Assembly (NCBI GenBank): GCA_015062245.1 | Contig: SUVA01000001.1 | Location: forward strand, 12,856 to 76,855 | Reading direction: 5' to 3' | Origin: Alphaproteobacteria bacterium | Lineage (GTDB): Bacteria; Pseudomonadota; Alphaproteobacteria; CAAHEQ01; UBA3637 | Length of the DNA stretch: 64,000 nt | In this document: positions 9 to 63,575 of the stretch, piece after piece | Layout: each line of letters starts with the position of its first letter | How positions within the stretch are numbered: the first letter of the stretch is position 1 | Program-made: the position numbers and the translations under genes | The notes under the pieces: generated by a model | What the model saw: only the letters and a program-made list of their open reading frames with translations | Database searches by the model: none | What the model was told of the DNA's origin: nothing

Positions 9-716
9 TTATTTAGTCGGCTCAATAACCTCTGACTTTTGTGCCAGATTCGGATTTTGTTGAGGTTGTTTTCCCGGCTGTTGTAAATTTTGTTGAGCTG
101 GCATTGTCGGCGCCTGAACAAGAGGTTGTTGCATATTCGGCATACCCCCCATTTGATTTTGACCAAAAGCAGGTTGGAAACCACCTACACCTTGCGCTCC
201 ACCACCCAAAGATGTCAGCAACGCCATATTGATATCATCAAATAATTTGGTTTTACGTAAAACAGGATTTTGTTCCATATACCACAAAATATTCCGACCC
301 TTTTCATCTGTTTGAGTTATGTCCACATTTGCTTGTTGTAAAAGTTGAATAATATATTCATTGGGTGCATAATAAGCTGCAAACAAAATTAAAGGCACCT
401 TTTTGGGAGCATCCTCAATCGGAAAATCATCCAAAGAAACAATTTGATTGGCACGTTTTAAATCCTGCGATAATAAAGCCTGTAAAACATCCCAATTACC
501 ACGACGTATCGCCAATTGCATCAATGTACCGCCACAACGGGGCACTTCATCAAAATTGACATTTTTATTGATTAAATCTTGAATCTGAGTTGCATCACGG
601 GCATCCCGAACCAATGTTTGAAGCGGTGAATAGGCACACTCTGACTTTTGTGGCGCAGCCTGAACCGGCGCAGACATTAAAATCCCCAAAGCACATGTCA
701 ATAAAAGTTTTTTCAT
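9..716 (-). CDS. Secreted ankyrin-repeat protein with Q/P/G-rich low-complexity C-terminal tail
   Basis: Sec-type signal peptide (MKKLLLTCALGILMSAPVQA); two to three ankyrin-like repeats (GGTLMQLAIRRGNWDVLQALL, GRNILWYMEQN); C-terminal about 70 aa rich in Q, P and G. Confidence 0.55.
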   Translation of the reverse strand: MKKLLLTCALGILMSAPVQAAPQKSECAYSPLQTLVRDARDATQIQDLINKNVNFDEVPRCGGTLMQLAIRRGNWDVLQALLSQDLKRANQIVSLDDFPIEDAPKKVPLILFAAYYAPNEYIIQLLQQANVDITQTDEKGRNILWYMEQNPVLRKTKLFDDINMALLTSLGGGAQGVGGFQPAFGQNQMGGMPNMQQPLVQAPTMPAQQNLQQPGKQPQQNPNLAQKSEVIEPTK

Positions 717-28184: not shown

Positions 28185-29942
28185 TTACTTCTTATATAAC
28201 GGACGGGGTTGATAACTTGTATGCAACAAGTGGTGCGACCGTTCGGACAAAGGCTTACCCAAAAATTCGTCATATAATTTCTTTACATCCGGATTTTGGT
28301 GTGAGCAACGTTGTTTTGACCCACGATCATCCTGCATCAAACCGGCCATACGGGCCTGACGGATTTCGTCTGTCACACCCAAAGGCTGACCGCCACCACC
28401 GACACAACCGCCATCACAGGCCATCACCTCAATAAAGTGATAGGGCGGTTCTTCGCCTTTTTGTTCGGCTTCACGGACTTTTTCCAACAACGCCTGAACA
28501 TGGCCGATACCATGGGCAACGGCAATGCGGACTTCTTTACCCGCTAAATTCAAGGTCATTTCTTTAATACCTTTATCCAAGCCCAAAATCGGTTTGATTT
28601 CCAAAGCGTCTTCGGGCATTTCTTCACCCGTCACAACGGCATGAACGGTACGCAAAGCAGCCTCCATCACGCCACCTGTGAAACCAAAGACCGTGGCAGC
28701 CCCCGTATAAGAACCCAAGGGGCTGTCGGCCTGTTCTTCGGGCAGATTGACAAAGTCAATGCCGGCCTGTTTAATCATGCGGGCCAATTCTCGGGTGGTC
28801 AAAGACACATCCACATCTTGAAAGCCCGAGGAGAACATTTCTTCCGAACGCAGGATTTCAAATTTCTTCGCCGTACAGGGCATAATTGAAATCACACGCA
28901 TATTTTTGGCTTCCACACCGATTTTATCGGCATAGTAGGTCTTGCTTAAAGCACCCACAATTTCGTGCGGGGATTTGCAAGATGAAAAGTGCGGAATCAT
29001 ATCGCTATAGTATTTTTCCATATAATCCACCCATGCCGGACAGCAGGATGTAATCATCGGTAAAACACCTTTACCATTTACAAAGCGTTCAATAAATTCC
29101 GTGCCTTCTTCCATAATAGTGACATCTGCCCCAAAGTTGGTATCAAACACGGCATTAAAGCCCAAACGGCGCAAGGCGGCATATAACTTACCCGTTGTGA
29201 TTTCCCCCGGTTTATAGCCAAAGGCTTCACCGATAGCCACACGAACGGCTGGTGCAATTTGAACCACACAGTATTTGTCTTTATCCTGCAACATATTCCA
29301 CACATATTGTGTGTCATCACGTTCGGTTAAAGCCCCAGTCGGACAGTGGGCTGTACATTGACCGCACTTGATACAGGGGCTATTGCCCAATTTTTCATCC
29401 GCCGCCGGTGAAATATGTGTATTGATACCACGTTTTAACATGGACAAAGCCCACACATTTTGGGTGTTTTGACAAACTTCCACACAGCGACCGCAAAGGA
29501 TACATTTGCGCGGATCCAACACGATACTTTTGGTGGAATCATCCACGGGCAATTCTTCCTTGGTGGGTGTAATATCGGCAAATTCCGTATCACGAATACC
29601 AAAGTCGGCCGATAATTTTCTCAATTCGCAGGTATCGTTTTTCAAACAGGTCAAACATTCGTTCGGATGTTTGCTGAGTGTCAGTTTCAATACTGTGCGA
29701 CGAGCCTCAATAATATCGGGATCACGGGTAATGACTTCCATCCCTTCGGCAACCGGCGTACAACAAGAACGCACCATACGGCCATTGGATTTGACAATAC
29801 AAATACCACAGGCAGCAGTCGGAGGTAAATCCGGATGATGACACAGTGTCGGGATTTTAATTTGAACGGATTTGGCTGCATCCAAAATGGTTGTACCGGC
29901 CGGCACTTCCACGGTTTGAGAATCAATTGTTAATTTTACCAT
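28185..29942 (-). CDS. hydA: [FeFe]-hydrogenase catalytic subunit HydA (M3-type with N-terminal 2Fe-2S and three 4Fe-4S accessory clusters)
   Basis: H-cluster signatures L1 ITSCCPAWV, L2 MPCTAKKFE, L3 EVMACDGGCVGGGGQP; N-terminal CxxxxxxxxxxCxxC 2Fe-2S, H/C-ligated cluster (HPNECLTCLKNDTC), CILCGRCVEVC and CIKCGQCTAHCP ferredoxin motifs. Confidence 0.85.
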   Translation of the reverse strand: MVKLTIDSQTVEVPAGTTILDAAKSVQIKIPTLCHHPDLPPTAACGICIVKSNGRMVRSCCTPVAEGMEVITRDPDIIEARRTVLKLTLSKHPNECLTCLKNDTCELRKLSADFGIRDTEFADITPTKEELPVDDSTKSIVLDPRKCILCGRCVEVCQNTQNVWALSMLKRGINTHISPAADEKLGNSPCIKCGQCTAHCPTGALTERDDTQYVWNMLQDKDKYCVVQIAPAVRVAIGEAFGYKPGEITTGKLYAALRRLGFNAVFDTNFGADVTIMEEGTEFIERFVNGKGVLPMITSCCPAWVDYMEKYYSDMIPHFSSCKSPHEIVGALSKTYYADKIGVEAKNMRVISIMPCTAKKFEILRSEEMFSSGFQDVDVSLTTRELARMIKQAGIDFVNLPEEQADSPLGSYTGAATVFGFTGGVMEAALRTVHAVVTGEEMPEDALEIKPILGLDKGIKEMTLNLAGKEVRIAVAHGIGHVQALLEKVREAEQKGEEPPYHFIEVMACDGGCVGGGGQPLGVTDEIRQARMAGLMQDDRGSKQRCSHQNPDVKKLYDEFLGKPLSERSHHLLHTSYQPRPLYKK

Positions 29943-29954
29943 CGTTTTATTTCC

Positions 29955-31715
29955 TTATCTTTTTGTGTTGATATTACAGGCATTGATTTCTTTTTCGGTT
30001 TCAACCGCATCCGGTTCATTCCCGTCAATCAATAACGCATCATATTCTTCTTTAAAGAACTTCATGGTTGACAAAACCGGATTGGGGGCTGTTTGGCCTA
30101 AACCACACAAAGAAGCCTTTTGCATGGCGTTTCCGATTTCCTTGATTTTGGCCACATCCGCTTTGGTGCCTTTGCCATCGGCAATTTTGTTCATTAATTG
30201 CAACATTTGATATCCACCAATACGGCATGGCGCACACTTACCACAGGATTCATCCACCGTAAAGCCCAAATAGAACTTGGCAATTTCAACCATACTGTCG
30301 TCTTCATCCATGATAATCATACCGCCTGAGCCCATCATAGAACCGATTTTTTTCAATTCTTCATAGCATAACGGCATATGCAGTTCGCTGGCCGGTATCA
30401 CACCACCGGAAGGACCGCCCGTTTGAACGGCCTTAAAGGGCTTACCGGAACTGGTCCCGCCACCGACGTCGTTCACCATTTCACCAACGGTTGTTCCCAT
30501 CGGCACTTCCACAAGACCTGAATGTTTCACTTTACCGGTGATGGCAAAAACTTTTGTGCCTTTGGACGTTTCGGTGCCAACTTCGCTGAACCATTCGGGA
30601 CCGTTGACCATAATCGGTGCAATATTGGCCAAAGTTTCCACGTTGTTGATGGCCGTCGGCTTATCAAACAATCCTTTTTGTGTCGGGAATGGTGGACGGG
30701 GACGTGGTGTACCGCGCTTACCTTCCACAGACGACATCAGGGCTGTTTCTTCACCACACACAAAGGCCCCAGCCCCATAACGGATATCCGCCATAAAGTT
30801 AAAGTCTGTGCCAAAAATGTTGCGGCCCAAAATACCATAGCGTTTGGCCTGTTTAATTGCCAATTCCATCCGCTGAATCGCCAAAGGATATTCGGCACGG
30901 ATATAGAACCATCCGTTGGTGGCCCCTGTCGCATAGGCACCAATCATCATCCCTTCCAATACGGCATGGGAACCACCACCTAAAATACACGAATCCATAT
31001 AGGCGCCCGGATCGCCTTCATCACCGTTACAAATCATAAACTTTTCACCGTCAACCAAGGGCGATTTGGCCAGCATTTCCCACTTGACACCTGTGGGGAA
31101 TCCGCCACCGCCACGACCACGCAAGCCGGACTTTTTAATCACTTCCAACACTTCTTCGGGTTTCATGGTCAAAGCCTTCATCAACCCCTGATAACCACCG
31201 TTGGCAATATATTCGCCCAAATCTTCGGGATCCGAATGGCCCAACAAACGCAATACGATTTTACGTTGTTTTTGGAAAAACGGCAAATCCAAAGAAAGTT
31301 CTTGTTGTTTCAAATAATCCGAAGTATTGATTTCGCCTTCTGATTTCAACGCCGGTGCCACATGCTCGGCCACAATCAATCGGGCCATATCGGGCGTTAC
31401 ATGTTGATATAATACAGGCTTTTGACCTTTAATTTCCACACGGGCCAAAGGACCGGAGGCACACAACCCCATACAACCGGTGCAAACCATACGCACATCG
31501 GCTTCTATACCGGCCGATTTTAAAGCTTCTTTAAAAGTATCAATCACACTGGATGCACCACCTGAATGACAGCTGGTGGCATTACAGGTGTAAATGGACG
31601 CCTTAAAATGGGCCACACGTTCTTTAAATTCATCACCCAATTTTAACAATGTTTCTTTTTGGGTGCGCCCCAAAGCTTTTAATTTTTCAACTTGTTCTTG
31701 TGACAATTCTACCAT
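29955..31715 (-). CDS. hydB: NuoF-like flavoprotein subunit HydB (FMN/NAD(P)H-binding, 2Fe-2S + 4Fe-4S clusters)
   Basis: GRGGGGFPTG FMN motif; N-terminal thioredoxin-like 2Fe-2S domain (CTGCMGLCASGP); C-terminal CGKCAPCR-type ferredoxin motifs; 586 aa as in trimeric bifurcating hydrogenases. Confidence 0.8.
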   Translation of the reverse strand: MVELSQEQVEKLKALGRTQKETLLKLGDEFKERVAHFKASIYTCNATSCHSGGASSVIDTFKEALKSAGIEADVRMVCTGCMGLCASGPLARVEIKGQKPVLYQHVTPDMARLIVAEHVAPALKSEGEINTSDYLKQQELSLDLPFFQKQRKIVLRLLGHSDPEDLGEYIANGGYQGLMKALTMKPEEVLEVIKKSGLRGRGGGGFPTGVKWEMLAKSPLVDGEKFMICNGDEGDPGAYMDSCILGGGSHAVLEGMMIGAYATGATNGWFYIRAEYPLAIQRMELAIKQAKRYGILGRNIFGTDFNFMADIRYGAGAFVCGEETALMSSVEGKRGTPRPRPPFPTQKGLFDKPTAINNVETLANIAPIMVNGPEWFSEVGTETSKGTKVFAITGKVKHSGLVEVPMGTTVGEMVNDVGGGTSSGKPFKAVQTGGPSGGVIPASELHMPLCYEELKKIGSMMGSGGMIIMDEDDSMVEIAKFYLGFTVDESCGKCAPCRIGGYQMLQLMNKIADGKGTKADVAKIKEIGNAMQKASLCGLGQTAPNPVLSTMKFFKEEYDALLIDGNEPDAVETEKEINACNINTKR

Positions 31716-31732
31716 CTTTTATCTCCTTACGC

Positions 31733-32218
31733 TTACATTGCCATTGTTTCACGCCATTCGGCAATAATTTTCGGCACTTCCAACGGGGTTACACGGCCGT
31801 ATGTTTTGCCATTGACAACCACAACGGGGGCCAAACCGCAACACCCTAAACAACGCACCACCTGAATATAAAACAAACCGTCATCTGTTGTAATACCGGC
31901 CTTCACACCCAATTCGGATTCAAATGCATCAATAACGGATTGGCTTCCCTTAATATGACAGGCTGTACCATCACAAATAGAAATAACAACTTTTCCCGGC
32001 GGATTTAATTTAAAGTGATTATAAAACGTTAAAACGGAATAAATTTGAGCCATCGGAATCTTTAATTCTTCGGCCACCACTTCCATGGAACACCACGGCA
32101 CATAACCAAATGCCCCTTGGATTTCGTGCAAAGCCATGATTAAAGAACCACGTTTGCTTTTCCACTTGACCATCATTTTTTTGGTCTCTTCTTGTATTTT
32201 TGCTTTATCTTCGGACAT
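31733..32218 (-). CDS. hydC: NuoE-like thioredoxin-fold 2Fe-2S subunit HydC
   Basis: CDGTACHIKG ... VRCLGCCGLAP motif; start at 32218 (MSEDKAKIQ) with RBS AAGGAGAA. Confidence 0.75.
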   Translation of the reverse strand: MSEDKAKIQEETKKMMVKWKSKRGSLIMALHEIQGAFGYVPWCSMEVVAEELKIPMAQIYSVLTFYNHFKLNPPGKVVISICDGTACHIKGSQSVIDAFESELGVKAGITTDDGLFYIQVVRCLGCCGLAPVVVVNGKTYGRVTPLEVPKIIAEWRETMAM

Positions 32219-32252
32219 TATATTCTCCTTTTTTGTTTTAAAGATATTTTCG

Positions 32253-32280
32253 TTATAACATATATTAAAATAATACGCAA
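32253..32280 (-). promoter_or_regulatory. Candidate sigma70-like promoter for hydCBA
   Basis: On the minus strand, TTGCGT-16 nt-TATAAC about 30 nt upstream of the hydC RBS. Confidence 0.4.
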
Positions 32281-32300
32281 GAATTTTTGAACAAATAAAA

Positions 32301-32325
32301 ACCACCGTTTTATCGGTGGTTTTTA
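32301..32325. terminator. Bidirectional terminator downstream of tyrS
   Basis: ACCACCG-TTTTAT-CGGTGGT hairpin with flanking A5 and T5. Confidence 0.55.
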
Positions 32326-36018: not shown

Positions 36019-36603
36019 ATGCGTTTTTTCACTTTTGTTTCGGGATTATTTATCGCCCTACCCCTTTGGGCAAATGATTTGATGAATTTAAGAAGTTACG
36101 GCAATGATTCGCCCAACAAACTATATTTATTTTCGTCATTGGCCTGTCCGCACTGTGCCCACTTTCATCAGGATGTTTTACCTGAAATTGAAAAAAACTA
36201 TGTAAAACCCGGCAAAGCAAAAATCGTGATGGTAGATATGGTTATGAACAATGCCAGCTTATTGGGTGCCATATTGTTGCGTTGCGCCCCAAAAGAAAAA
36301 CAACACGAAATTGAAAAAGAATTATACCAAGAACAAAAACAGTGGGCCTTTGATGAAAAAAAAGCCAAAATATTTTTGGCTGATATTGCCCATAAATACG
36401 GAATTTCCGCCGGTGAATTTGAAACGTGCATTCAAAATAAAGATTTACAAAAAACAATTATTACCGACCAAAAAAAATTATCCGCTACTTATGGCATCAC
36501 CCATATGCCAACCCTTATGTTTCGCAAAAATGAACAGGTGTTTTTATGGAAAGGAAGCGAAAAAGACGAAATTATGACAGGCCTTTCCCAAGCTTTTGAA
36601 TAA
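36019..36603 (+). CDS. dsbA: DsbA-family thiol:disulfide oxidoreductase
   Basis: Signal peptide; thioredoxin-fold CxxC active site (LACPHCAHF). Confidence 0.7.
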   Translation: MRFFTFVSGLFIALPLWANDLMNLRSYGNDSPNKLYLFSSLACPHCAHFHQDVLPEIEKNYVKPGKAKIVMVDMVMNNASLLGAILLRCAPKEKQHEIEKELYQEQKQWAFDEKKAKIFLADIAHKYGISAGEFETCIQNKDLQKTIITDQKKLSATYGITHMPTLMFRKNEQVFLWKGSEKDEIMTGLSQAFE

Positions 36604-37350: not shown

Positions 37351-37411
37351 AGATGGATATCAATATAAAAATCCCCCCTGTAACAAACAGGAGGGATAAT
37401 ACACAAGAAAA

Positions 37412-38605
37412 TTACTTACATAACACACTGCTCAGCGTGAAATCCCATCCATCACGACCTTGTTGAGAACCTGTTCCGTTCATATACATCGGATAATTAC
37501 AATCCGAATATATAGTATTTATGCAAGAAACCCAACCATGCGCAGCTATTGAACAGGATCCAAATAATTCTGCACAACCCAATTCTTCGGGTTTGACCAT
37601 TTTCTCTTTTCCACCACATATGGCCACGCCATCACTGAAAGAAACTCCTCCGGAAATATTAACTTGAGTTCCTATCCGATTCCCTTCAGAATCTTTTATT
37701 TCTGTACAAGAAGATGGATTTTCAGCACAATAATCCTCATATTTTGGAAGCTCTTTGTTCGGATTTAAACAAATACATTTTTCCAAACTATTATCACAAA
37801 CTGCATACGCACCAGCACGCATTTCTTCCGCTGTGCATTCTGCGCAATCATACACACCACATGCAACAGCATTGCTGGATACAGCACAAGACCAACTACC
37901 ATTTACTGATTGATACCAATATCCCTTTAAAGCATTACAGCATTCTTCACCTGTACAGTCTTTTGTTCCAAATTCACATTTGCCATTCGAACAAGTGGTT
38001 GTTTTACCATCGGCGGTGGTGCAAGAATCTGTTGATGAAATATCACCTGTTTCAGAATCACAACATTGAGAGTCATATCCCACACAACAATCTTTTTTAC
38101 ATTCACCGCCACACCATTTATAGCCGGCAGCTTCGCACTTTCCACCTGTTGCGTCATCGTTATAATCAGCGGCGACTTTGTCGCTGGATAAATTATTATT
38201 ATAGGTTAAGGTCAATGTTGTTTCATTACATTCGGCTTTGCGAACCATGCCGCCTGACATCTTTTCCATTTGCTCACATACGGCCGAATCCATACCGGTG
38301 ATTTCCATTTTAAATTGTTCGTCATTGACTTTTTCCGGTGTGCCAAATGTTCCATATTTACCATTGCCAAAATCTTGAACATTTAGGGGTTTATCGGTTA
38401 GAATTTGGGAGGATATGGTGGTGGCAAGCATACTGGCCTGATGTAATAATTCATTCGCTTTGTGTTTTTTCATGGCGACACCATAACCATATACACCACC
38501 CACGGACAAGACACCCACGATGGCCAGTACGCCCAGCATTTCAACCATACTGCGCCCCTTTTGGCTTCTTTTATAGTTTTTGTTTGTTTTATTTTTTACT
38601 GACAT
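37412..38605 (-). CDS. Type IVb prepilin-like protein with large cysteine-rich C-terminal domain (candidate minor pilin / tip adhesin)
   Basis: Start at 38605 with RBS GAAAGGAGTC. 17-aa basic leader ending in Gly (MSVKNKTNKNYKRSQKG), then RSMVEMLGVLAIVGVLSVGG with Glu at +5, resembling TcpA/CofA N-terminal helices. About 380-aa mature part has some 40 Cys including CC doublets. Confidence 0.6.
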   Translation of the reverse strand: MSVKNKTNKNYKRSQKGRSMVEMLGVLAIVGVLSVGGVYGYGVAMKKHKANELLHQASMLATTISSQILTDKPLNVQDFGNGKYGTFGTPEKVNDEQFKMEITGMDSAVCEQMEKMSGGMVRKAECNETTLTLTYNNNLSSDKVAADYNDDATGGKCEAAGYKWCGGECKKDCCVGYDSQCCDSETGDISSTDSCTTADGKTTTCSNGKCEFGTKDCTGEECCNALKGYWYQSVNGSWSCAVSSNAVACGVYDCAECTAEEMRAGAYAVCDNSLEKCICLNPNKELPKYEDYCAENPSSCTEIKDSEGNRIGTQVNISGGVSFSDGVAICGGKEKMVKPEELGCAELFGSCSIAAHGWVSCINTIYSDCNYPMYMNGTGSQQGRDGWDFTLSSVLCK

Positions 38606-38650
38606 TTTTTGACTCCTTTCTTTTATTTGTTCAGACAGTAAATACCTTTT

Positions 38651-38740
38651 GTCATTCCCCACTTGATGGGGCATCCATAAGGATTTAATTCTATGGATCT
38701 TCGTGTCAAGCACGAAGATGACAGTGATGGGGTGGAATGA
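38651..38740. repeat. MITE-like element of about 90 bp with terminal inverted repeats (GTCATTCCCCAC ... GGGGTGGAATGAC), copy 1
   Basis: The 5' 27 nt GTCATTCCCCACTTGATGGGGCATCCA and the terminal GGAATGAC recur at 63489..63575; internal hairpin CTTCGTG-tcaag-CACGAAG. Confidence 0.45.
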
Positions 38741-38754
38741 CAAATACAGTTTAA

Positions 38755-38797
38755 CCCACTGTAATCATACAGTGGGTCGGTTGTGCGTTCGCACAAC
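38755..38797. promoter_or_regulatory. Two adjacent perfect 8-bp-stem hairpins upstream of the pilin-like gene
   Basis: CCCACTGT-aatcat-ACAGTGGG and GTTGTGCG-tt-CGCACAAC. Confidence 0.4.
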
Positions 38798-38815
38798 TTA
38801 ATATTCAAAATTAAA

Positions 38816-38832
38816 TGTGTGTGTGTGTGTGT
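38816..38832. repeat. (TG)8 dinucleotide tract about 210 nt upstream of the pilin-like gene start
   Basis: atgtgtgtgtgtgtgtgtgtac seen directly; a candidate slipped-strand site. Confidence 0.9.
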
Positions 38833-39002
38833 ACAAAGTACATCTATTTTCCCCTTTACCGTGGTTTAAACACATTTTAAATAGCCTCCTATTTCCTTTA
38901 CCTATCCCCACACTAGCATAAATCACCACCCTTGTCAAGCAGATTATTCGGATTTAAAAAATCCCCCGCACGGCACGGGAGATAATAGGAGACATTTTTA
39001 AA

Positions 39003-39079
<77 letters not shown>

Positions 39080-39120: not shown

Positions 39121-41064
39121 TTATTCTGATAAAGTTTCAATCTCTATGCGATTTTTATGGATATAAATAAAATAAATCTTATTTCCTTGGGGGATTAGTT
39201 TATCAATTCGGCAATGCCCACTTTGAATCGGTAAAACGGCAAAATCGGCATTTGCGCAATAATCCGGTGATAAAGCAATCCGTTTACTTTTTATTTCAAC
39301 TATATTATCCTTTATTTTTTCCGACCGATAAAAGCCCAGTTTGTTTTGCCATAAAGTTTGTATCCAATCTTGACCATTTTCATTCGCATAGAAACGGCCA
39401 TTTTGAATATAAGCGATACTTTGGCCTTTATCCGCCACCATCATTATGGGATAATCTGAGTTAAATGCCGTCAATGTGCCCATTAAAATAAGAATGACAC
39501 CCATGATTTTACCCCAGTATTGCCAAAGACAAATAAAGATAATGCCAAAAATGATAAGGCTTAAACCGACCACGCTGAATGAAGGAAGGCTGATTTCGGC
39601 AAAGGGTAATTTTGAAATCCAATCTGCCATCTGTTCAATCCATTCAATAACTGTTCCCGCCCATTGAAAAAGGGCTGAATCCATTTCAAAGGGCATCAAC
39701 AAACATCCGATAAACAATAACGGCATAATAATCAGGGAAAATAAAAAGCTGAACGCAAGATTGCCCAAAATACCATAAGGTGTTATTTGATTAAAGTGCC
39801 ATATAATCAATGGTGTCAATCCCAATGAAATAGCCACACCCAAGGCGCAAAATTCACAAAAATGACGGATATATTTATTTTGGTTGGGCATAAATTGTTT
39901 GAATTTTTCATGAACGCTGACTAAAATTAAAACCGATAAAAAGGAAAGTTGAAAGCTGATAGACATTAAATTTTCCGGCCTGAATATCAACATACAAAAA
40001 CCGGCCAAAATAATTGTTCTGACAGAAAACGTTTTGCGATTGACCAATATCCCCAAAAACACCAAAGCAATCATTAAATAAGAACGAACGGCCGGAATTT
40101 GAAAGCCTGACAACGCCAAATAAAAGCCTGTGCCAATCAATGCAAAAACAGCGGCAATCTTTTTGGTATTCACATACAATGTTAAACGACCACACACAAC
40201 ACCCAATCCCCGAATCAAGAAAAACAAAAATCCCGCCAACAAAGCCATATGAAAGCCGGAAACAGATAAGACATGGACAATCCCTGAACGGCGATAAATT
40301 TGATATAATTCAGGGCTGACCAATCTTTGTTCACCGGTAATCAAAGGTGTGATGATACGGGCCTGATTTTCGGGTAGTATTTGAAAGACATGTTCGGTAA
40401 TTTGATGGCGCAAGCGTTGAAAAATGGTTGGCTTTGCATTTATATCCCGAATATCCAAAACCTGAACAACTTTGCCGATAGCACCGATTTTTTCAAAATA
40501 TAATCTTTTGGCCTGAGAGGTATGAAAGGGTGCTTTAATGCTTACGGGTGGCACCAAATTGACCTTTAATTTGACCCGTTGACCAACCTTTAACAACGGT
40601 TCCAAATTATCGTAATGCAGACGAATTTTATCGGGTTGCTTGATAACGCCCATCGGATAAGAGATGTTATTTAAAATCAAAATCTGTTTATCGGGTAAAA
40701 CAGTATTATCCGTAATTGTGGCTACAATAATTGTATTGGAAAGTTTTTGATTTAAAACTGGATGTGCCACCATCTGATAACGCAAATGACATATTGAACA
40801 ACCCAGCATCACAAATGTTATAAAAAGCATAAAACAAAAGACAAAATCTTTCTTATAAAATAAAATCAATCCCAGCACGGCCAAAGGTAAAATAATTATA
40901 CTTAAAATCGTGGGGAAGTGATAAAAGTATAACAATATCCCCGTCATAAATGCCAAGAAAGACCATATCAGGTGTTCCTGAAACATAGATTTAATTTCTG
41001 CTTTTAACTGTTTAATTTTGGGATGATACAGGGACAACATGGGGGATATTATTTTGAATTTCAT
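39121..41064 (-). CDS. comEC: DNA internalization competence protein ComEC/Rec2 (no C-terminal metallo-beta-lactamase domain)
   Basis: Polytopic membrane protein with Competence domain motif (ITGEQRL ... HVLSVSGFHMALLAG). True start may be an internal Met (e.g. 40986), since the track start overlaps the upstream lipoprotein gene. Confidence 0.8.
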   Translation of the reverse strand: MKFKIISPMLSLYHPKIKQLKAEIKSMFQEHLIWSFLAFMTGILLYFYHFPTILSIIILPLAVLGLILFYKKDFVFCFMLFITFVMLGCSICHLRYQMVAHPVLNQKLSNTIIVATITDNTVLPDKQILILNNISYPMGVIKQPDKIRLHYDNLEPLLKVGQRVKLKVNLVPPVSIKAPFHTSQAKRLYFEKIGAIGKVVQVLDIRDINAKPTIFQRLRHQITEHVFQILPENQARIITPLITGEQRLVSPELYQIYRRSGIVHVLSVSGFHMALLAGFLFFLIRGLGVVCGRLTLYVNTKKIAAVFALIGTGFYLALSGFQIPAVRSYLMIALVFLGILVNRKTFSVRTIILAGFCMLIFRPENLMSISFQLSFLSVLILVSVHEKFKQFMPNQNKYIRHFCEFCALGVAISLGLTPLIIWHFNQITPYGILGNLAFSFLFSLIIMPLLFIGCLLMPFEMDSALFQWAGTVIEWIEQMADWISKLPFAEISLPSFSVVGLSLIIFGIIFICLWQYWGKIMGVILILMGTLTAFNSDYPIMMVADKGQSIAYIQNGRFYANENGQDWIQTLWQNKLGFYRSEKIKDNIVEIKSKRIALSPDYCANADFAVLPIQSGHCRIDKLIPQGNKIYFIYIHKNRIEIETLSE

Positions 41065-43130: not shown

Positions 43131-43807
43131 TATCGTCCCCCTGTTTTGACGGCAATTTGTTGCAAATTGGCACTGCTTAAACCGGCCTGAGTGGAACGGT
43201 CTGATTTTTTCTTGCCCCCTGAACCTGTCATTTCACCGTTGGGAATGTAAATTTTACCCAAAGGCACAGGAATGTATAAAGTTTGCGGATGGCCCACACC
43301 GGCCGAAGTTAAAATTTGTTGATTGATATATTTGTGAATCAATTCATGAAAGGGGTGAATGGGAATCAAAACCAAATTATCCATATCCAAATTGCCCCCA
43401 TATAACAACGGATATTTTAAATGCACCGTCCAATTGGTGGGTAAAATCCCCTTGGACATATAAAAGATACTTTCTTCGGATATATCAGCACTGCGTAAAT
43501 CGTTCACATATTGGGCGACTAAATCTTTTAAAAAAAAGTGTTTAAGTTTTTCCAGTTTTTGATGAAATTCAGCTTCATTTATCGTATGCGGATAATAATT
43601 GGCCGACATCAATTCCATGCCAGCAAAATTTTCCTGTTGAAATAAATCCACCCAATAATCTTGATTTTTTATATCCGAATCCAACCCCTCCATCAAACCA
43701 TCCAAACCAATGGAATCCGTTTGTGTTTTGGGTGCCGAATTATCCATCAACTGGTCCCAGTTGTCATAAATTTCATTGCCGTCCAATTCTGTCAGATTTT
43801 CATCCAT
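43130..43807 (-). CDS. Acidic hypothetical protein co-operonic with the T4CP (candidate adaptor/chaperone)
   Basis: 225 aa; D/E-rich N-terminal half; Cys-free; overlaps the T4CP stop by 8 nt. Confidence 0.45.
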   Translation of the reverse strand: MDENLTELDGNEIYDNWDQLMDNSAPKTQTDSIGLDGLMEGLDSDIKNQDYWVDLFQQENFAGMELMSANYYPHTINEAEFHQKLEKLKHFFLKDLVAQYVNDLRSADISEESIFYMSKGILPTNWTVHLKYPLLYGGNLDMDNLVLIPIHPFHELIHKYINQQILTSAGVGHPQTLYIPVPLGKIYIPNGEMTGSGGKKKSDRSTQAGLSSANLQQIAVKTGGR

Positions 43808-46088
43808 TTAAATCATCCTTGGGTAGTGGTGGTTGAAAAGTCGGTGCTGAGGTCGGTGGTGCAAAAACCCCCTGACCCTGAGGCGGTAAAATTGCCTGAA
43901 CGGGTTGCGCATTATTTTGAAGTTGAATTTGTTGTTCTGTACTTTCTTGCGGTTGAGGTTCTTCCGATTTTTGTTGTTGGTTTTCCGGCGCCCGTCTGTC
44001 CACAATCCATTGGGGAATATATGGGGCGGTCGGAATCTGAGTCTTTTTCAAAAAGCCTTTATCCAAATAATACCGTGGTGCATCGGCCAAAATCGGATGC
44101 GATAAGAACCCTTGGAACAAAACATACTGTTTTAACATATCCAAACTTAAAATATCCGAAGCACTGACCACATCTGATTTTTGCAATTGACGGGATACGT
44201 TTTGCGAAAAGTCAAACATTTTTTGTCCTCCGCCTTCTTGTTTGGATGTGCTTTTAACTTCAATCGTTTTGGAACCAATCATTTTTACAAAACGTTCGGC
44301 TGTTTGTTCGTTGTTTTGGGATAAAATAACTTTTGCCGCCGTTGTTGAAATAATTGTTTCCAAATCGTCTTTACCGTATTGGCCGGAAATTTGGCCTAAA
44401 TCCTGCCCGATTAACAAATAGGCCACCTTTTGTCCACGACCAACAGCCGGACCGTTTTTCACACAATCCAGTTTTGGCATTTGCGGGAATTCGTCCAACA
44501 CGAACAAAACAGGACAAGGCCCACATTTTTTGCCGTCATTACCCACATACCCCGGCGGATTAGCAATTAAAAATGAACTGACCAATTCCACAAAGATACC
44601 CGTAATCACGTTCAAAGCACGGGCATCCACTTGGTTAATGGACAAATAAACGGAAATCGGTTTGATTTTGCCGTCCGCCGGATCCACCATACCACGCAAA
44701 TCACGGAAAGTAAAATCACTGAATTTGGTTCGTTCTTTTACAGCCGCATTTTTAAAAATACTGATACCTGACAAAGCGGTTGATAAAATTGACCCACGTT
44801 CTTTATCGGGCGTACTGGATAACTGATTTAATTCGGCAATAGCCCGACGGGCATAAGCAAAGCGATTACTTTCATTCACGGCCGCATCCAACACGTCCTT
44901 CATGGGATCGGCCATCATGGCCATTTGATCGCCTTCATCGGAACGGCGTTTAATATCGGCGGCGATTTTCATCTGCATATCGGTCAGCCATTCCAAAATC
45001 ATGGCAATACACGGTTCATGCCCGTGCCAGATTTCAGGCAAACCTTCCCACGTACCGACAGGCGCATAGTTATTTAAATTCAGCTGTCCTTTTTTCAAAG
45101 CATCCAAAGCAATCAAGGCACTGTTATCGGACATATCGGCATAATAGGTGGCCAAAACATTGGCGTCTTCTTGATCAAAAGAACCTTCGGATAACTTGTT
45201 GATAAAATAATCGTTGGCACGGGCCCGTTCGCATTTGCTGGCAATAAAGTGCAAAAAACCACTCATGGCATTACGACCTGTTTTACACCAGTGCGGATCT
45301 GCTCCCCCTTTGGGTTCTTCCACCAACACGGCCACCATAGAGTCAATATACATATCTCGGGCCGGTCCCAACGGGGGCAATGCCGTGGGCGATAAAGGAT
45401 TCCAGCTGGGATAAAAGACACCGTTTTGCGGTTCGTCTTGGGCGCCCCAGTTGATGATAAAAACAGGGCCTATTTTATTACGATAACCTGATGTTTGATA
45501 GCATAATTCGGGTTTCACGTCATTGACAATAATACTTAAAGAATCAGATTCAAAAATCGTGGGAATAACCACGCCGGCGGTTTTACCCGTTCCCGGCGGT
45601 GCCACCACCAAGGCGGATAAAGTGTTGGGCATTTTTAACAAACGCCCCTTAAAACGCCCCAAAACGCAACAGAATCCATCAAACAGCCCCATCTTTTTAA
45701 TATCCTGATAGGAGGCCAAACGGCCACTGCCAAAAACGGTGGACAGATTGGAATATGGGTTCGTATACAATCCGACAAAAATAATAATAGGAATAACGGC
45801 AATCGGAATAAACGGCAAAAACATTGCCACAGGCACAGGGGAAATTTCACGAAATTGTTTTATCCAATTGGCATAGGTAATAATAATTTTGCTGGGATGT
45901 AAAAATGCCTTTGACCAAAAATCCCAAGCAATGCCAACCAACGAAATATCCCCCGATAACAACCAATGTGTGATTGGTAAAATCAACAAAGACAATATCC
46001 ACGAACAAAACAATGCAAAAAGAACAGAAAGTATAACATGAGAAATATACTTATTTTTTTCTTTATATTGATCGTCTGCCATTTTCAT
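43800..46088 (-). CDS. Type IV secretion coupling protein (VirD4/TraG/DotL family ATPase)
   Basis: Two N-terminal TM helices, then FGSGRLASYQDIKKMGLF. Walker A VVAPPGTGKTAGVVIPT (compare VirD4/TraG APTRSGKGVGxVIPT) and Walker B VLFVLDEFPQMPKL. About 60-aa Q/P-rich disordered C-terminal tail. Confidence 0.8.
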   Translation of the reverse strand: MKMADDQYKEKNKYISHVILSVLFALFCSWILSLLILPITHWLLSGDISLVGIAWDFWSKAFLHPSKIIITYANWIKQFREISPVPVAMFLPFIPIAVIPIIIFVGLYTNPYSNLSTVFGSGRLASYQDIKKMGLFDGFCCVLGRFKGRLLKMPNTLSALVVAPPGTGKTAGVVIPTIFESDSLSIIVNDVKPELCYQTSGYRNKIGPVFIINWGAQDEPQNGVFYPSWNPLSPTALPPLGPARDMYIDSMVAVLVEEPKGGADPHWCKTGRNAMSGFLHFIASKCERARANDYFINKLSEGSFDQEDANVLATYYADMSDNSALIALDALKKGQLNLNNYAPVGTWEGLPEIWHGHEPCIAMILEWLTDMQMKIAADIKRRSDEGDQMAMMADPMKDVLDAAVNESNRFAYARRAIAELNQLSSTPDKERGSILSTALSGISIFKNAAVKERTKFSDFTFRDLRGMVDPADGKIKPISVYLSINQVDARALNVITGIFVELVSSFLIANPPGYVGNDGKKCGPCPVLFVLDEFPQMPKLDCVKNGPAVGRGQKVAYLLIGQDLGQISGQYGKDDLETIISTTAAKVILSQNNEQTAERFVKMIGSKTIEVKSTSKQEGGGQKMFDFSQNVSRQLQKSDVVSASDILSLDMLKQYVLFQGFLSHPILADAPRYYLDKGFLKKTQIPTAPYIPQWIVDRRAPENQQQKSEEPQPQESTEQQIQLQNNAQPVQAILPPQGQGVFAPPTSAPTFQPPLPKDDLNG

Positions 46089-63319: not shown

Positions 63320-63488
63320 TTAATATTCCTTTCGGTTTAATCGATCTAGGTTTTTATTAAAACAAAAGTTCACCTTATAGTCAACAGTTTTTTGAAATAT
63401 ATGGGATAAATTTTTGATTTCCCGAAGCTCGGATATTGATTTCAAAGGATTTTTACACACTTGCACACGGACTTGTCCATTTTTATCT

Positions 63489-63575
63489 GTCATGCCCCAC
63501 TTGATAGGGCATCCAGTGGCTATATATTCCTTATTGTGTACTTACGCATTTGATTCCCGATCAGGTCGGGAATGA
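63489..63575. repeat. MITE-like element copy 2 (GTCATGCCCCACTTGATAGGGCATCCA ... GGGAATGAC)
   Basis: Same 27-nt 5' end and GGAATGAC terminus as 38651..38740; internal hairpin TTCCCGA-tcaggt-CGGGAA; sits about 170 nt upstream of the paralog B start. Confidence 0.45.

Follow-up and report, generated by a model that had tools for sequence, protein, structure and literature searches.

Type IV pili owe part of their versatility to functional modules carried by minor pilins. PilV is both a minor pilin and an adhesin (PMC5430464, PMC9045228), and CofB and TcpB are tip-located minor pilins that initiate assembly (PMC5207764, PMC6048534). Modular pilins have been documented, and the large ones are thought to reside at the pilus tip (PMC8179133). 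Here we analyze a gene in a 64-kb stretch of contig SUVA01000001.1 from an uncultured alphaproteobacterium; this whole stretch of 64,000 nucleotides is called the window. The gene, an open reading frame (ORF) at 37412-38605 on the minus strand, encodes a protein of 397 amino acids (aa) from a family that takes the modular principle to an extreme. A literature search found no paper on this family, and none containing its RSMVEML motif.

The account we consider most probable is that the product is a modular minor pilin, processed between Gly17 and Arg18, whose type IVb head is built into an R64-like pilus and whose disulfide-rich binding module most likely lies at the tip. An A24 prepilin peptidase would remove the basic leader after Gly17, and the RSMVE helix, with Glu at +5, would dock the compact pilin module into the filament. 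The filament machine would be of the R64/IncI-like type IVb kind, with a PilN-type secretin, PilO2, PilQ ATPase, PilR platform, PilS-type major pilins and a PilT-like ATPase, and the bulky disulfide-bonded C-terminal part would most likely act as a ligand-binding adhesin shown at the pilus tip. The organism would keep many alternative versions of the protein, combining the same head with different Cys-rich or lectin-like tails, as single genes scattered over the chromosome. Each would form its own transcription unit, preceded in this sub-lineage by an upstream ORF with a (CA)n repeat and by hairpins. The gene is divided as follows.

38611-38619, minus strand: Shine-Dalgarno region AAAGGAGTC as read from the sequence, with the core AAAGGAG at 38613-38619 and the ATG (38605) 5 nt downstream
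38555-38605, minus strand: basic leader of 17 aa, MSVKNKTNKNYKRSQKG, ending with the invariant Gly (-1)
38111-38554, minus strand: type IV pilin module, residues 18-165, with a hydrophobic helix carrying Glu+5, a long helix to residue 69, a beta-sheet, the pair C110-C126 and the linker NNNLSSDKVAADYN
37760-38110, minus strand: Cys-rich middle region, residues 166-282, with 18 Cys and three CC doublets, common to a subset of paralogues
37415-37759, minus strand: C-terminal module, residues 283-397, with 8 Cys, ending in ...SSVLCK and without relatives
37371-37397, minus strand: hairpin and T-run resembling an intrinsic terminator, 15 nt past the stop codon

An earlier note on this DNA had placed the start at 38605 on the strength of a ribosome-binding site, and the ATG indeed follows the AAAGGAG core by 5 nt. 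The same coding sequence, with 0 nucleotide differences, is present on six further metagenome contigs, and the gene is thus not an assembly artefact. The N-terminus, MSVKNKTNKNYKRSQKG/RSMVEMLGVLAIVGVLSVGG (the slash marks the predicted cleavage site), has Gly at -1 and Glu at +5, as the note had read it, and these residues together with a short basic leader and approximately 20 hydrophobic residues constitute a class III signal. Across the first set of fetched loci, the motif G/RSMVEMLG was identical in 100 of 100 family ORFs, while the leaders that precede it differ in sequence and length (approximately 7-18 aa), such that invariance begins at the Gly. Because the site is constant while leaders vary, its resemblance to a cleavage site is not a matter of chance. 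The Arg at +1 had been called unusual and is non-canonical, yet it is invariant throughout the family, including the major pilins encoded in the pilus clusters described below, and R64 PilS and PilV carry Trp at this position. Arg+1 is therefore no anomaly here.

What the note had described as a single disulfide-rich domain of 380 aa resolves into a pilin module and a Cys-rich stretch of approximately 230 aa. Cysteines number 30 instead of the approximately 40 claimed; the CC doublets are as reported, with three at residues 173, 181 and 222. The pilin module proper comprises approximately residues 18-150, within which C110 and C126 are invariant. In an AlphaFold2 model of the window protein built from 109 relatives, a helix spanning residues 36-69 packs on a beta-sheet, with a helix-flanked disulfide pair C110/C126 and a predicted local distance difference test score (pLDDT) of 82-95 for residues 41-170. 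The structure prediction proposed in the note thus returns the long N-terminal helix packed on an antiparallel beta-sheet that is the mark of a pilin fold, and the best structural matches of the module are CofA and TcpA. Profile comparison of the module with the in-cluster major pilins gave 99.8% probability (E 7.5e-28) in an alignment that takes in the leader and N-terminal helix as well as some of the globular domain; the major pilins used in that comparison exceed the Pfam thresholds for the type IVb pilin families PilS (PF08805) and Bundlin (PF05307). The globular part alone matched them weakly (E 0.004 over just 24 columns), and the window protein itself had no Pfam PilS match, with weak matches in 4 of the 109 relatives. 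Judged by its modelled fold and by sequence homology, the N-terminal module is a pilin.

Sequence comparison places the gene in a very large paralogous family whose C-termini vary, a membership that, like the conserved (CA)n leader, had escaped the earlier note. A protein search yielded 417 clusters in which every named match came from a metagenome-assembled genome (MAG) of an uncultured "Alphaproteobacteria bacterium". At least 530 loci were confirmed in species-representative genomes, nearly every one in a MAG that bears the label Alphaproteobacteria, with gut samples of human, goat, sheep, deer, buffalo and rabbit as sources, and a metagenome scan confirmed at least 505 more; the N-terminal module alone as a metagenome query confirmed no locus. 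Mature lengths range from 89 to 886 aa, and the number of Cys is even in 90% of members. A contig may hold several paralogues, and the MAG JAZRVC01 has at least 11 family genes in the loci fetched, the paralogues standing as single genes amid unrelated housekeeping genes; tblastn found none elsewhere in the window.

Genes for the predicted filament were sought first within the window. Neither a Pfam scan of every non-overlapping ORF of at least 120 aa, covering type IV pilus, type II secretion and Peptidase_A24 genes, nor tblastn and phmmer searches with Gsp, Hof, R64 Pil and MAG-cluster proteins returned a match in the 64 kb, in agreement with the statement in the note that the window holds no prepilin peptidase or pilus assembly gene. 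Related MAGs and metagenomes, however, carry an R64-like type IVb cluster in at least 20 fetched loci. Its order is a gene without assignment, a TcpQ-like gene, a lipoprotein secretin, PAP_PilO, a second gene without assignment, a T2SSE ATPase and a T2SSF platform protein, followed by a PilS/Bundlin-like gene lacking the cleavage motif, one or two PilS/Bundlin major pilins with G/RSMVEMLG, and a second, PilT-like ATPase. The cluster is homologous to and collinear with pilL-N-O-(P)-Q-R-S of R64/IncI plasmids (PilN 1e-54, PilQ 1e-45, PilR 1e-33, PilS 1e-11), and has no counterpart of PilT (the transglycosylase) or PilU (the peptidase), nor a large pilin of the PilV kind. Because no large PilV/CofB-like pilin was found in these clusters, the scattered family may supply that role. 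Two loci, L027 and L043, have the cluster and a modular family gene on one contig, 3-5 kb apart.

Searches of the clusters and their surroundings by tblastn and phmmer with GspO and R64 PilU, and with a GxGD-plus-transmembrane pattern, found no prepilin peptidase. A24 genes are instead encoded elsewhere. On metagenome contig L111, an A24 fragment with the motifs LPD and GAGDVK, 35% identical to GspO residues 93-219, adjoins three tandem G/RSMVEML pilins. Its full-length relatives, of approximately 230 aa, match PF01478; such genes were seen in L171-L173 and L180-L183, and a housekeeping locus dnaG-yqeY-A24-rodZ-prfA-prmC is conserved over approximately 10 kb around the gene (L171-L173, L180-L182), unlinked to the pilus operon. 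One A24 gene is on JAZRVC010000001.1, from the MAG with at least 11 family genes. Another protein annotated "prepilin peptidase", MBE6446256.1, has an accession bracketed by those of E7021_01325 and E7021_03935, to which the window gene is most closely related among its paralogues, and judging from this range would belong to MAG E7021; the E7021_01325 protein and the window protein co-occur in Joint Genome Institute (JGI) sample 3300032167. The note would have abandoned its reading had the genome contained no prepilin peptidase and had residues 18-45 been modelled as an ordinary cleaved Sec signal peptide. The search it proposed, conducted at the level of the lineage, found A24 genes in related MAGs and contigs, and at that level the objection falls.

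Two features of gene arrangement fit a different role for the same signal. It might only anchor or present Cys-rich binders at the envelope, in a short pseudopilus or in the manner of the archaeal 'bindosome', or feed a piston like that of type II secretion. The genes lie scattered without linkage to a pilus operon, stand-alone N-modules in tandem arrays (four in L013, three in L111) could build a separate short filament, and the tails are very large, with family lengths reaching 886 aa. Against this, the same invariant signal is found on bona fide PilS/Bundlin major pilins within type IVb clusters that have a retraction-type ATPase, and no separate type II secretion machinery was seen in approximately 1.8 Mb of fetched DNA. 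We therefore regard an anchoring or piston role as unlikely and retain incorporation into a type IVb pilus as the better explanation. The arrays themselves (L013 16016-18188; L111 2472-4680) encode short pilins of approximately 113-140 aa when mature, consisting of the N-module only, which may serve as minor pilins or build a second filament. In L089 and L090 (1-3062), the type IVb cluster stands directly beside VirB4/TrbE and TrbC (VirB2-like) genes, and a type IV secretion coupling protein of the VirD4/TraG type is encoded in the window (43800-46088, minus strand). By analogy, a cluster with type IV secretion neighbours recalls the pairing of thin pilus and conjugation on IncI plasmids.

Downstream of the pilin module, the window protein is, by sequence comparison, a mosaic of a family-wide head, a partly common middle and an end without relatives. 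Residues 1-165 were matched by all 120 listed relatives with identity up to 89%, and residues 166-290 by 49 of those 120 (BLASTP). Exhaustive phmmer searches placed the middle region in just 5 other representative clusters, with all matches inside residues 166-282, and for residues 283-397 returned only the protein itself among 1.84 billion representatives; BLASTP likewise matched this end in none of the 120 listed relatives. The tail has 18 Cys in residues 166-282 and 8 in residues 283-397. The commonest tail in the family ends in a module common to 49 of the 120 closest listed relatives, with the consensus ...WWSA.n.Cka...lvtl.dlG...yWt.d...nSC.A..V...R....YALCe, and has a C-type-lectin-like fold, as studied on paralogue P0007 and not on the window protein. 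A fold for the window protein's own C-terminal end was sought and not found: AlphaFold2 pLDDT is approximately 30 for residues 325-397, homologues are absent, and similarity to the family lectin-like profile was not significant (hhalign).

A conserved N-terminus with cassette-like C-termini resembles polymorphic toxins, and the adjacency of a type IVb cluster to type IV secretion genes in L089/L090 would suit a family of effectors in which the pilin head directs trafficking and the variable tails form the cargo, either secreted or transferred to other cells. A Pfam scan of relatives, however, matched no family in the tails and no toxin or enzyme domains, and the commonest tail is a lectin-like binding fold. 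Furthermore, no immunity-like gene follows the window gene; the next ORF encodes an RHH_4 (ribbon-helix-helix) protein on the opposite strand. Delivery of effectors is thus improbable, and a binding module presented on a pilus remains our preferred reading of the tail.

Several observations weigh against that reading. The window protein scored below the cut-offs of the curated hidden Markov models (HMMs) for the N-terminal methylation motif that the note had proposed to scan (PF07963, 15.7 versus 21.2; TIGR02532, 12.9 versus 16.3), residues 18-35 are modelled with low confidence and no helix, and the gene is outside any pilus operon. The pilus cluster and peptidase are known from related MAGs and co-occurring contigs, not from the window's own genome. 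The A24 proteins have no methyltransferase-domain match on record, which makes N-methylation doubtful. Finally, the C-terminal module of the window protein has no recognizable fold or homologue, and the label of adhesin would rest on analogy with paralogues. The first two of these points, along with a positive N-terminus followed by a hydrophobic stretch, are what would be expected of an ordinary Sec-dependent protein in which residues 18-40 are a cleaved signal peptide or signal anchor and the likeness to pilins is superficial. Yet Gly-1 and Glu+5 are invariant, with conservation starting exactly at the Gly while leaders vary, and the helix runs on into a confidently modelled pilin fold with 99.8% profile homology to PilS-type pilins. 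We give the Sec alternative little credence. The unusual Arg+1 and Ser+2 lower the HMM score; 45 of the 109 relatives matched the N_methyl HMM at E <= 0.01. Because G/RSMVEMLG scores under current cut-offs, proteins of this family are mostly labelled 'hypothetical' or mislabelled as type II secretion. Overall, the modular minor pilin remains the most probable account.

A neighbour of the gene had drawn attention in the note, which placed comEC approximately 500 bp away on the same strand beyond a tRNA-Arg and pointed out that ComEC and type IV (pseudo)pili cooperate in DNA uptake. The arrangement is accurate: a ComEC-like ORF (39121-41064; Pfam Competence 2.6e-65, plus DUF4131) ends 515 bp upstream of the gene in the same orientation, with tRNA-Arg(TCT) (39003-39079) in the interval. 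Adjacency speaks for a competence pilin acting in DNA uptake with ComEC; other features contradict it. A terminator follows the tRNA-Arg (38961-38983) and another follows the gene, which makes the gene monocistronic, and it has a promoter-like site of its own. A ComEC homologue within 10 kb of a family gene was seen in 1 of approximately 85 other loci, with paralogues placed amid unrelated housekeeping genes, and the pilus clusters of related genomes belong with R64 type IVb systems and not with Com or type IVa ones. Given the separate transcription signals and the single further locus with a nearby ComEC, the adjacency is best read as coincidence and a competence pilin is very improbable. Of the note's proposal of a tip-adhesin-like minor pilin, the pilin identity gains from fold, homology and the machinery of the lineage; the tie to comEC and membership in the CofB/TcpB class do not survive.

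The region upstream of the gene is itself a family trait: approximately 320 nt are 80-91% identical to regions upstream of paralogues in other contexts. Its elements are listed below in the direction of transcription.

38910-38938, minus strand: promoter-like site, with -35 TTGACA (38933-38938), a 17-nt spacer and extended -10 TGcTAGTGT (38910-38918)
38798-38875, minus strand: upstream ORF of 25 codons, MCLNHGKGENRCTLYTHTHTFNFEY*, with AGGAGG at 38885-38890, 9 nt before its ATG, and a stop codon that abuts hairpin 1
38816-38832, minus strand: (CA)8 microsatellite inside the upstream ORF, encoding Thr-His repeats
38780-38797, minus strand: leader hairpin 1, GTTGTGC-GAAC-GCACAAC, present in minimum free energy (MFE) and centroid folds
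38754-38777, minus strand: leader hairpin 2, ACCCACTGTA-TGAT-TACAGTGGGT, present in MFE and centroid folds and terminator-like in relatives
38651-38741, minus strand: palindromic insertion of approximately 90 nt (gtcattcc...ggaatgac), resembling a miniature transposable element and forming a long hairpin in the predicted fold

The promoter-like site is kept upstream of paralogues in four other loci (alignment A2) and is predicted to act as the promoter; a simple promoter scanner did not report it, since TAGTGT fits 3 of 6 consensus positions. Equivalent upstream ORFs run through (CA)n in L001, L087, L004, L016, L030, L094, L108 and L119, and the leader layout recurs at L091. The fetched DNA, approximately 1.8 Mb, contains 13 (CA)n tracts of six or more units (6 to 20 units; 4 of the 13 from a second, independent set of loci). 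Every one is followed, approximately 110-510 nt downstream and in the same orientation, by a family gene, and just two other dinucleotide runs reach such length. Compensatory changes occur at three base pairs (6 sequences). In more distant loci the layout is the same but the sequences are not: (CA)11-20 runs straight into a stop codon, and of the two GC-rich hairpins that come next the second has a U-run behind it. Rfam assigns the leader to no known RNA family, its matches in the window being a transfer-messenger RNA (tmRNA) and two tRNAs only.

Leader-peptide attenuators control the his and thr operons, and repeats drive phase variation at H. influenzae hif, with (TA)n, and Neisseria pilC, with poly-G. 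Like the former, the leader has hairpins and a U-run downstream of a small ORF in which His and Thr codons abound, and like the latter it has a perfect dinucleotide repeat of variable length upstream of adhesin genes; it differs from both in that the regulatory codons are themselves the microsatellite, so that both mechanisms could apply. An attenuator based on a leader peptide, a switch driven by slippage, or a combination of the two would fit the layout, and the leader probably gates expression of the gene. As a tentative extension, the family may constitute a repertoire of pilus-tip adhesins, at least a subset of which is switched singly by a leader of a new kind, where a hypermutable (CA)n tract supplies the Thr-His codons of a peptide encoded just ahead of a terminator, with slippage or His/Thr-dependent ribosome stalling picking the cap; we consider this less likely than not. 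Clean (CA)n slippage at a single locus was sought among the six contigs with identical coding sequence and not found: five have (CA)8 and one (L178) has (CA)9. The leader of L178 (1-396 versus window 38590-38985) is like that of another paralogue, with an extra palindromic insertion and an upstream ORF of 99 codons, and reflects either recombination between paralogue leaders or chimeric assembly. Because it differs elsewhere too, its (CA)9 provides no clean evidence of slippage.

The palindromic insertion is missing from most paralogue leaders in alignment A2; copies occur at L001 20979-21076 and, partially, at window 63488-63515. Similar palindromic repeats (gtcatcc...ggaatgac) are present in the family-gene leader of L030, and in other loci translated upstream remnants make several family ORFs seem longer at the N-terminus. 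The window gave no sign of a diversity-generating retroelement that would act on a lectin-like tail, as it has no reverse transcriptase and no template repeat; Pfam detected no recombinase or reverse-transcriptase domain there, and the gene sequence has no second copy as a repeat.

A two-piece alpha_tmRNA (240 bits) marks the window as alphaproteobacterial, and its G+C content of 40% and [FeFe]-hydrogenase are in keeping with an anaerobic gut lineage. The last is of the HydABC type, encoded by three genes (large subunit, Nuo51-like, 2Fe-2S thioredoxin-like) at 28185-32305 on the minus strand, and in an alphaproteobacterium suggests that growth is anaerobic and fermentative. The stretch 0.8 kb downstream of the gene (36019-36603, plus strand) encodes a DsbA-like protein with a thioredoxin fold and the motif CPHC; family genes in L080 and L028 likewise have a DsbA homologue nearby, a link that may be functional or due to chance. 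At the window edge is a gene for an ankyrin-repeat protein (9-716, minus strand), and proteins of this kind are often tied to host-interacting bacteria.

Within one uncultured gut lineage, represented in human and ruminant samples, hundreds of distinct head-tail combinations are encoded by a family that has no Pfam coverage beyond the signal motif and many members of which carry lectin folds of a eukaryote-like type. Should the tails prove to bind glycans, whether host or microbial, niche and partner specificity would depend to a major extent on the family, which also supplies new binding domains of a small, disulfide-rich kind. The (CA)n leader would provide a compact model for stochastic or amino-acid-dependent adhesin choice. 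A repertoire that is indeed switched in this way would amount to a contingency-locus version of the R64 shufflon spread over many genes.

Among known systems, PilV of the R64/IncI1-IncI2 thin pilus resembles the family in its constant pilin N-terminus, its alternative C-terminal binding segments and its PilN/O/Q/R/S-type machine. The non-canonical +1 residue (Trp in R64, Arg here) and the collinearity of MAG clusters with R64 pilN-pilS extend the likeness. Unlike PilV, to which no MAG ORF was matched by phmmer, the family employs no shufflon or Rci recombinase; its variation is distributed over many separate chromosomal genes with their own promoters, its tails are Cys-rich or lectin-like, and the peptidase is encoded outside the cluster. 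By analogy, the arrangement resembles the PilV shufflon in function, one head with many tails, via many genes instead of DNA inversions. CofB of the colonization factor antigen III (CFA/III) pilus of enterotoxigenic Escherichia coli (ETEC) and TcpB of the V. cholerae toxin-coregulated pilus (TCP) similarly join an N-terminal pilin domain to extra C-terminal binding domains. These differ in that the window gene and its paralogues stand alone among housekeeping genes instead of beside a major pilin in a type IVb operon, and the window protein lacks the beta-repeat and beta-sandwich domains that follow the pilin domain. With homology, operon location and domain architecture all failing, the gene is not a member of the PilV or CofB/TcpB families. 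S. sanguinis PilB (von Willebrand factor A module) and PilC (lectin module) are encoded by one or two genes per genome in the pil locus of a monoderm with type IVa pili, and their modules have database signatures, whereas here paralogues are many per genome and their tails match no Pfam family. Through paralogue P0007, the lectin-like tail matches the fibre tip of Bdellovibrio bacteriovorus (Bd2740 C-terminal domain, PDB 8oks) and eukaryotic C-type lectin-like domains; the carrier is a trimeric fibre in Bdellovibrio and a pilin here, and the window protein's own C-terminal end is not assigned to this fold. Relative to the known modular and tip-adhesin pilins, what is new in this family is its scale, an invariant non-canonical signal, tails that are lectin-like or unmatched, and the (CA)n leader.

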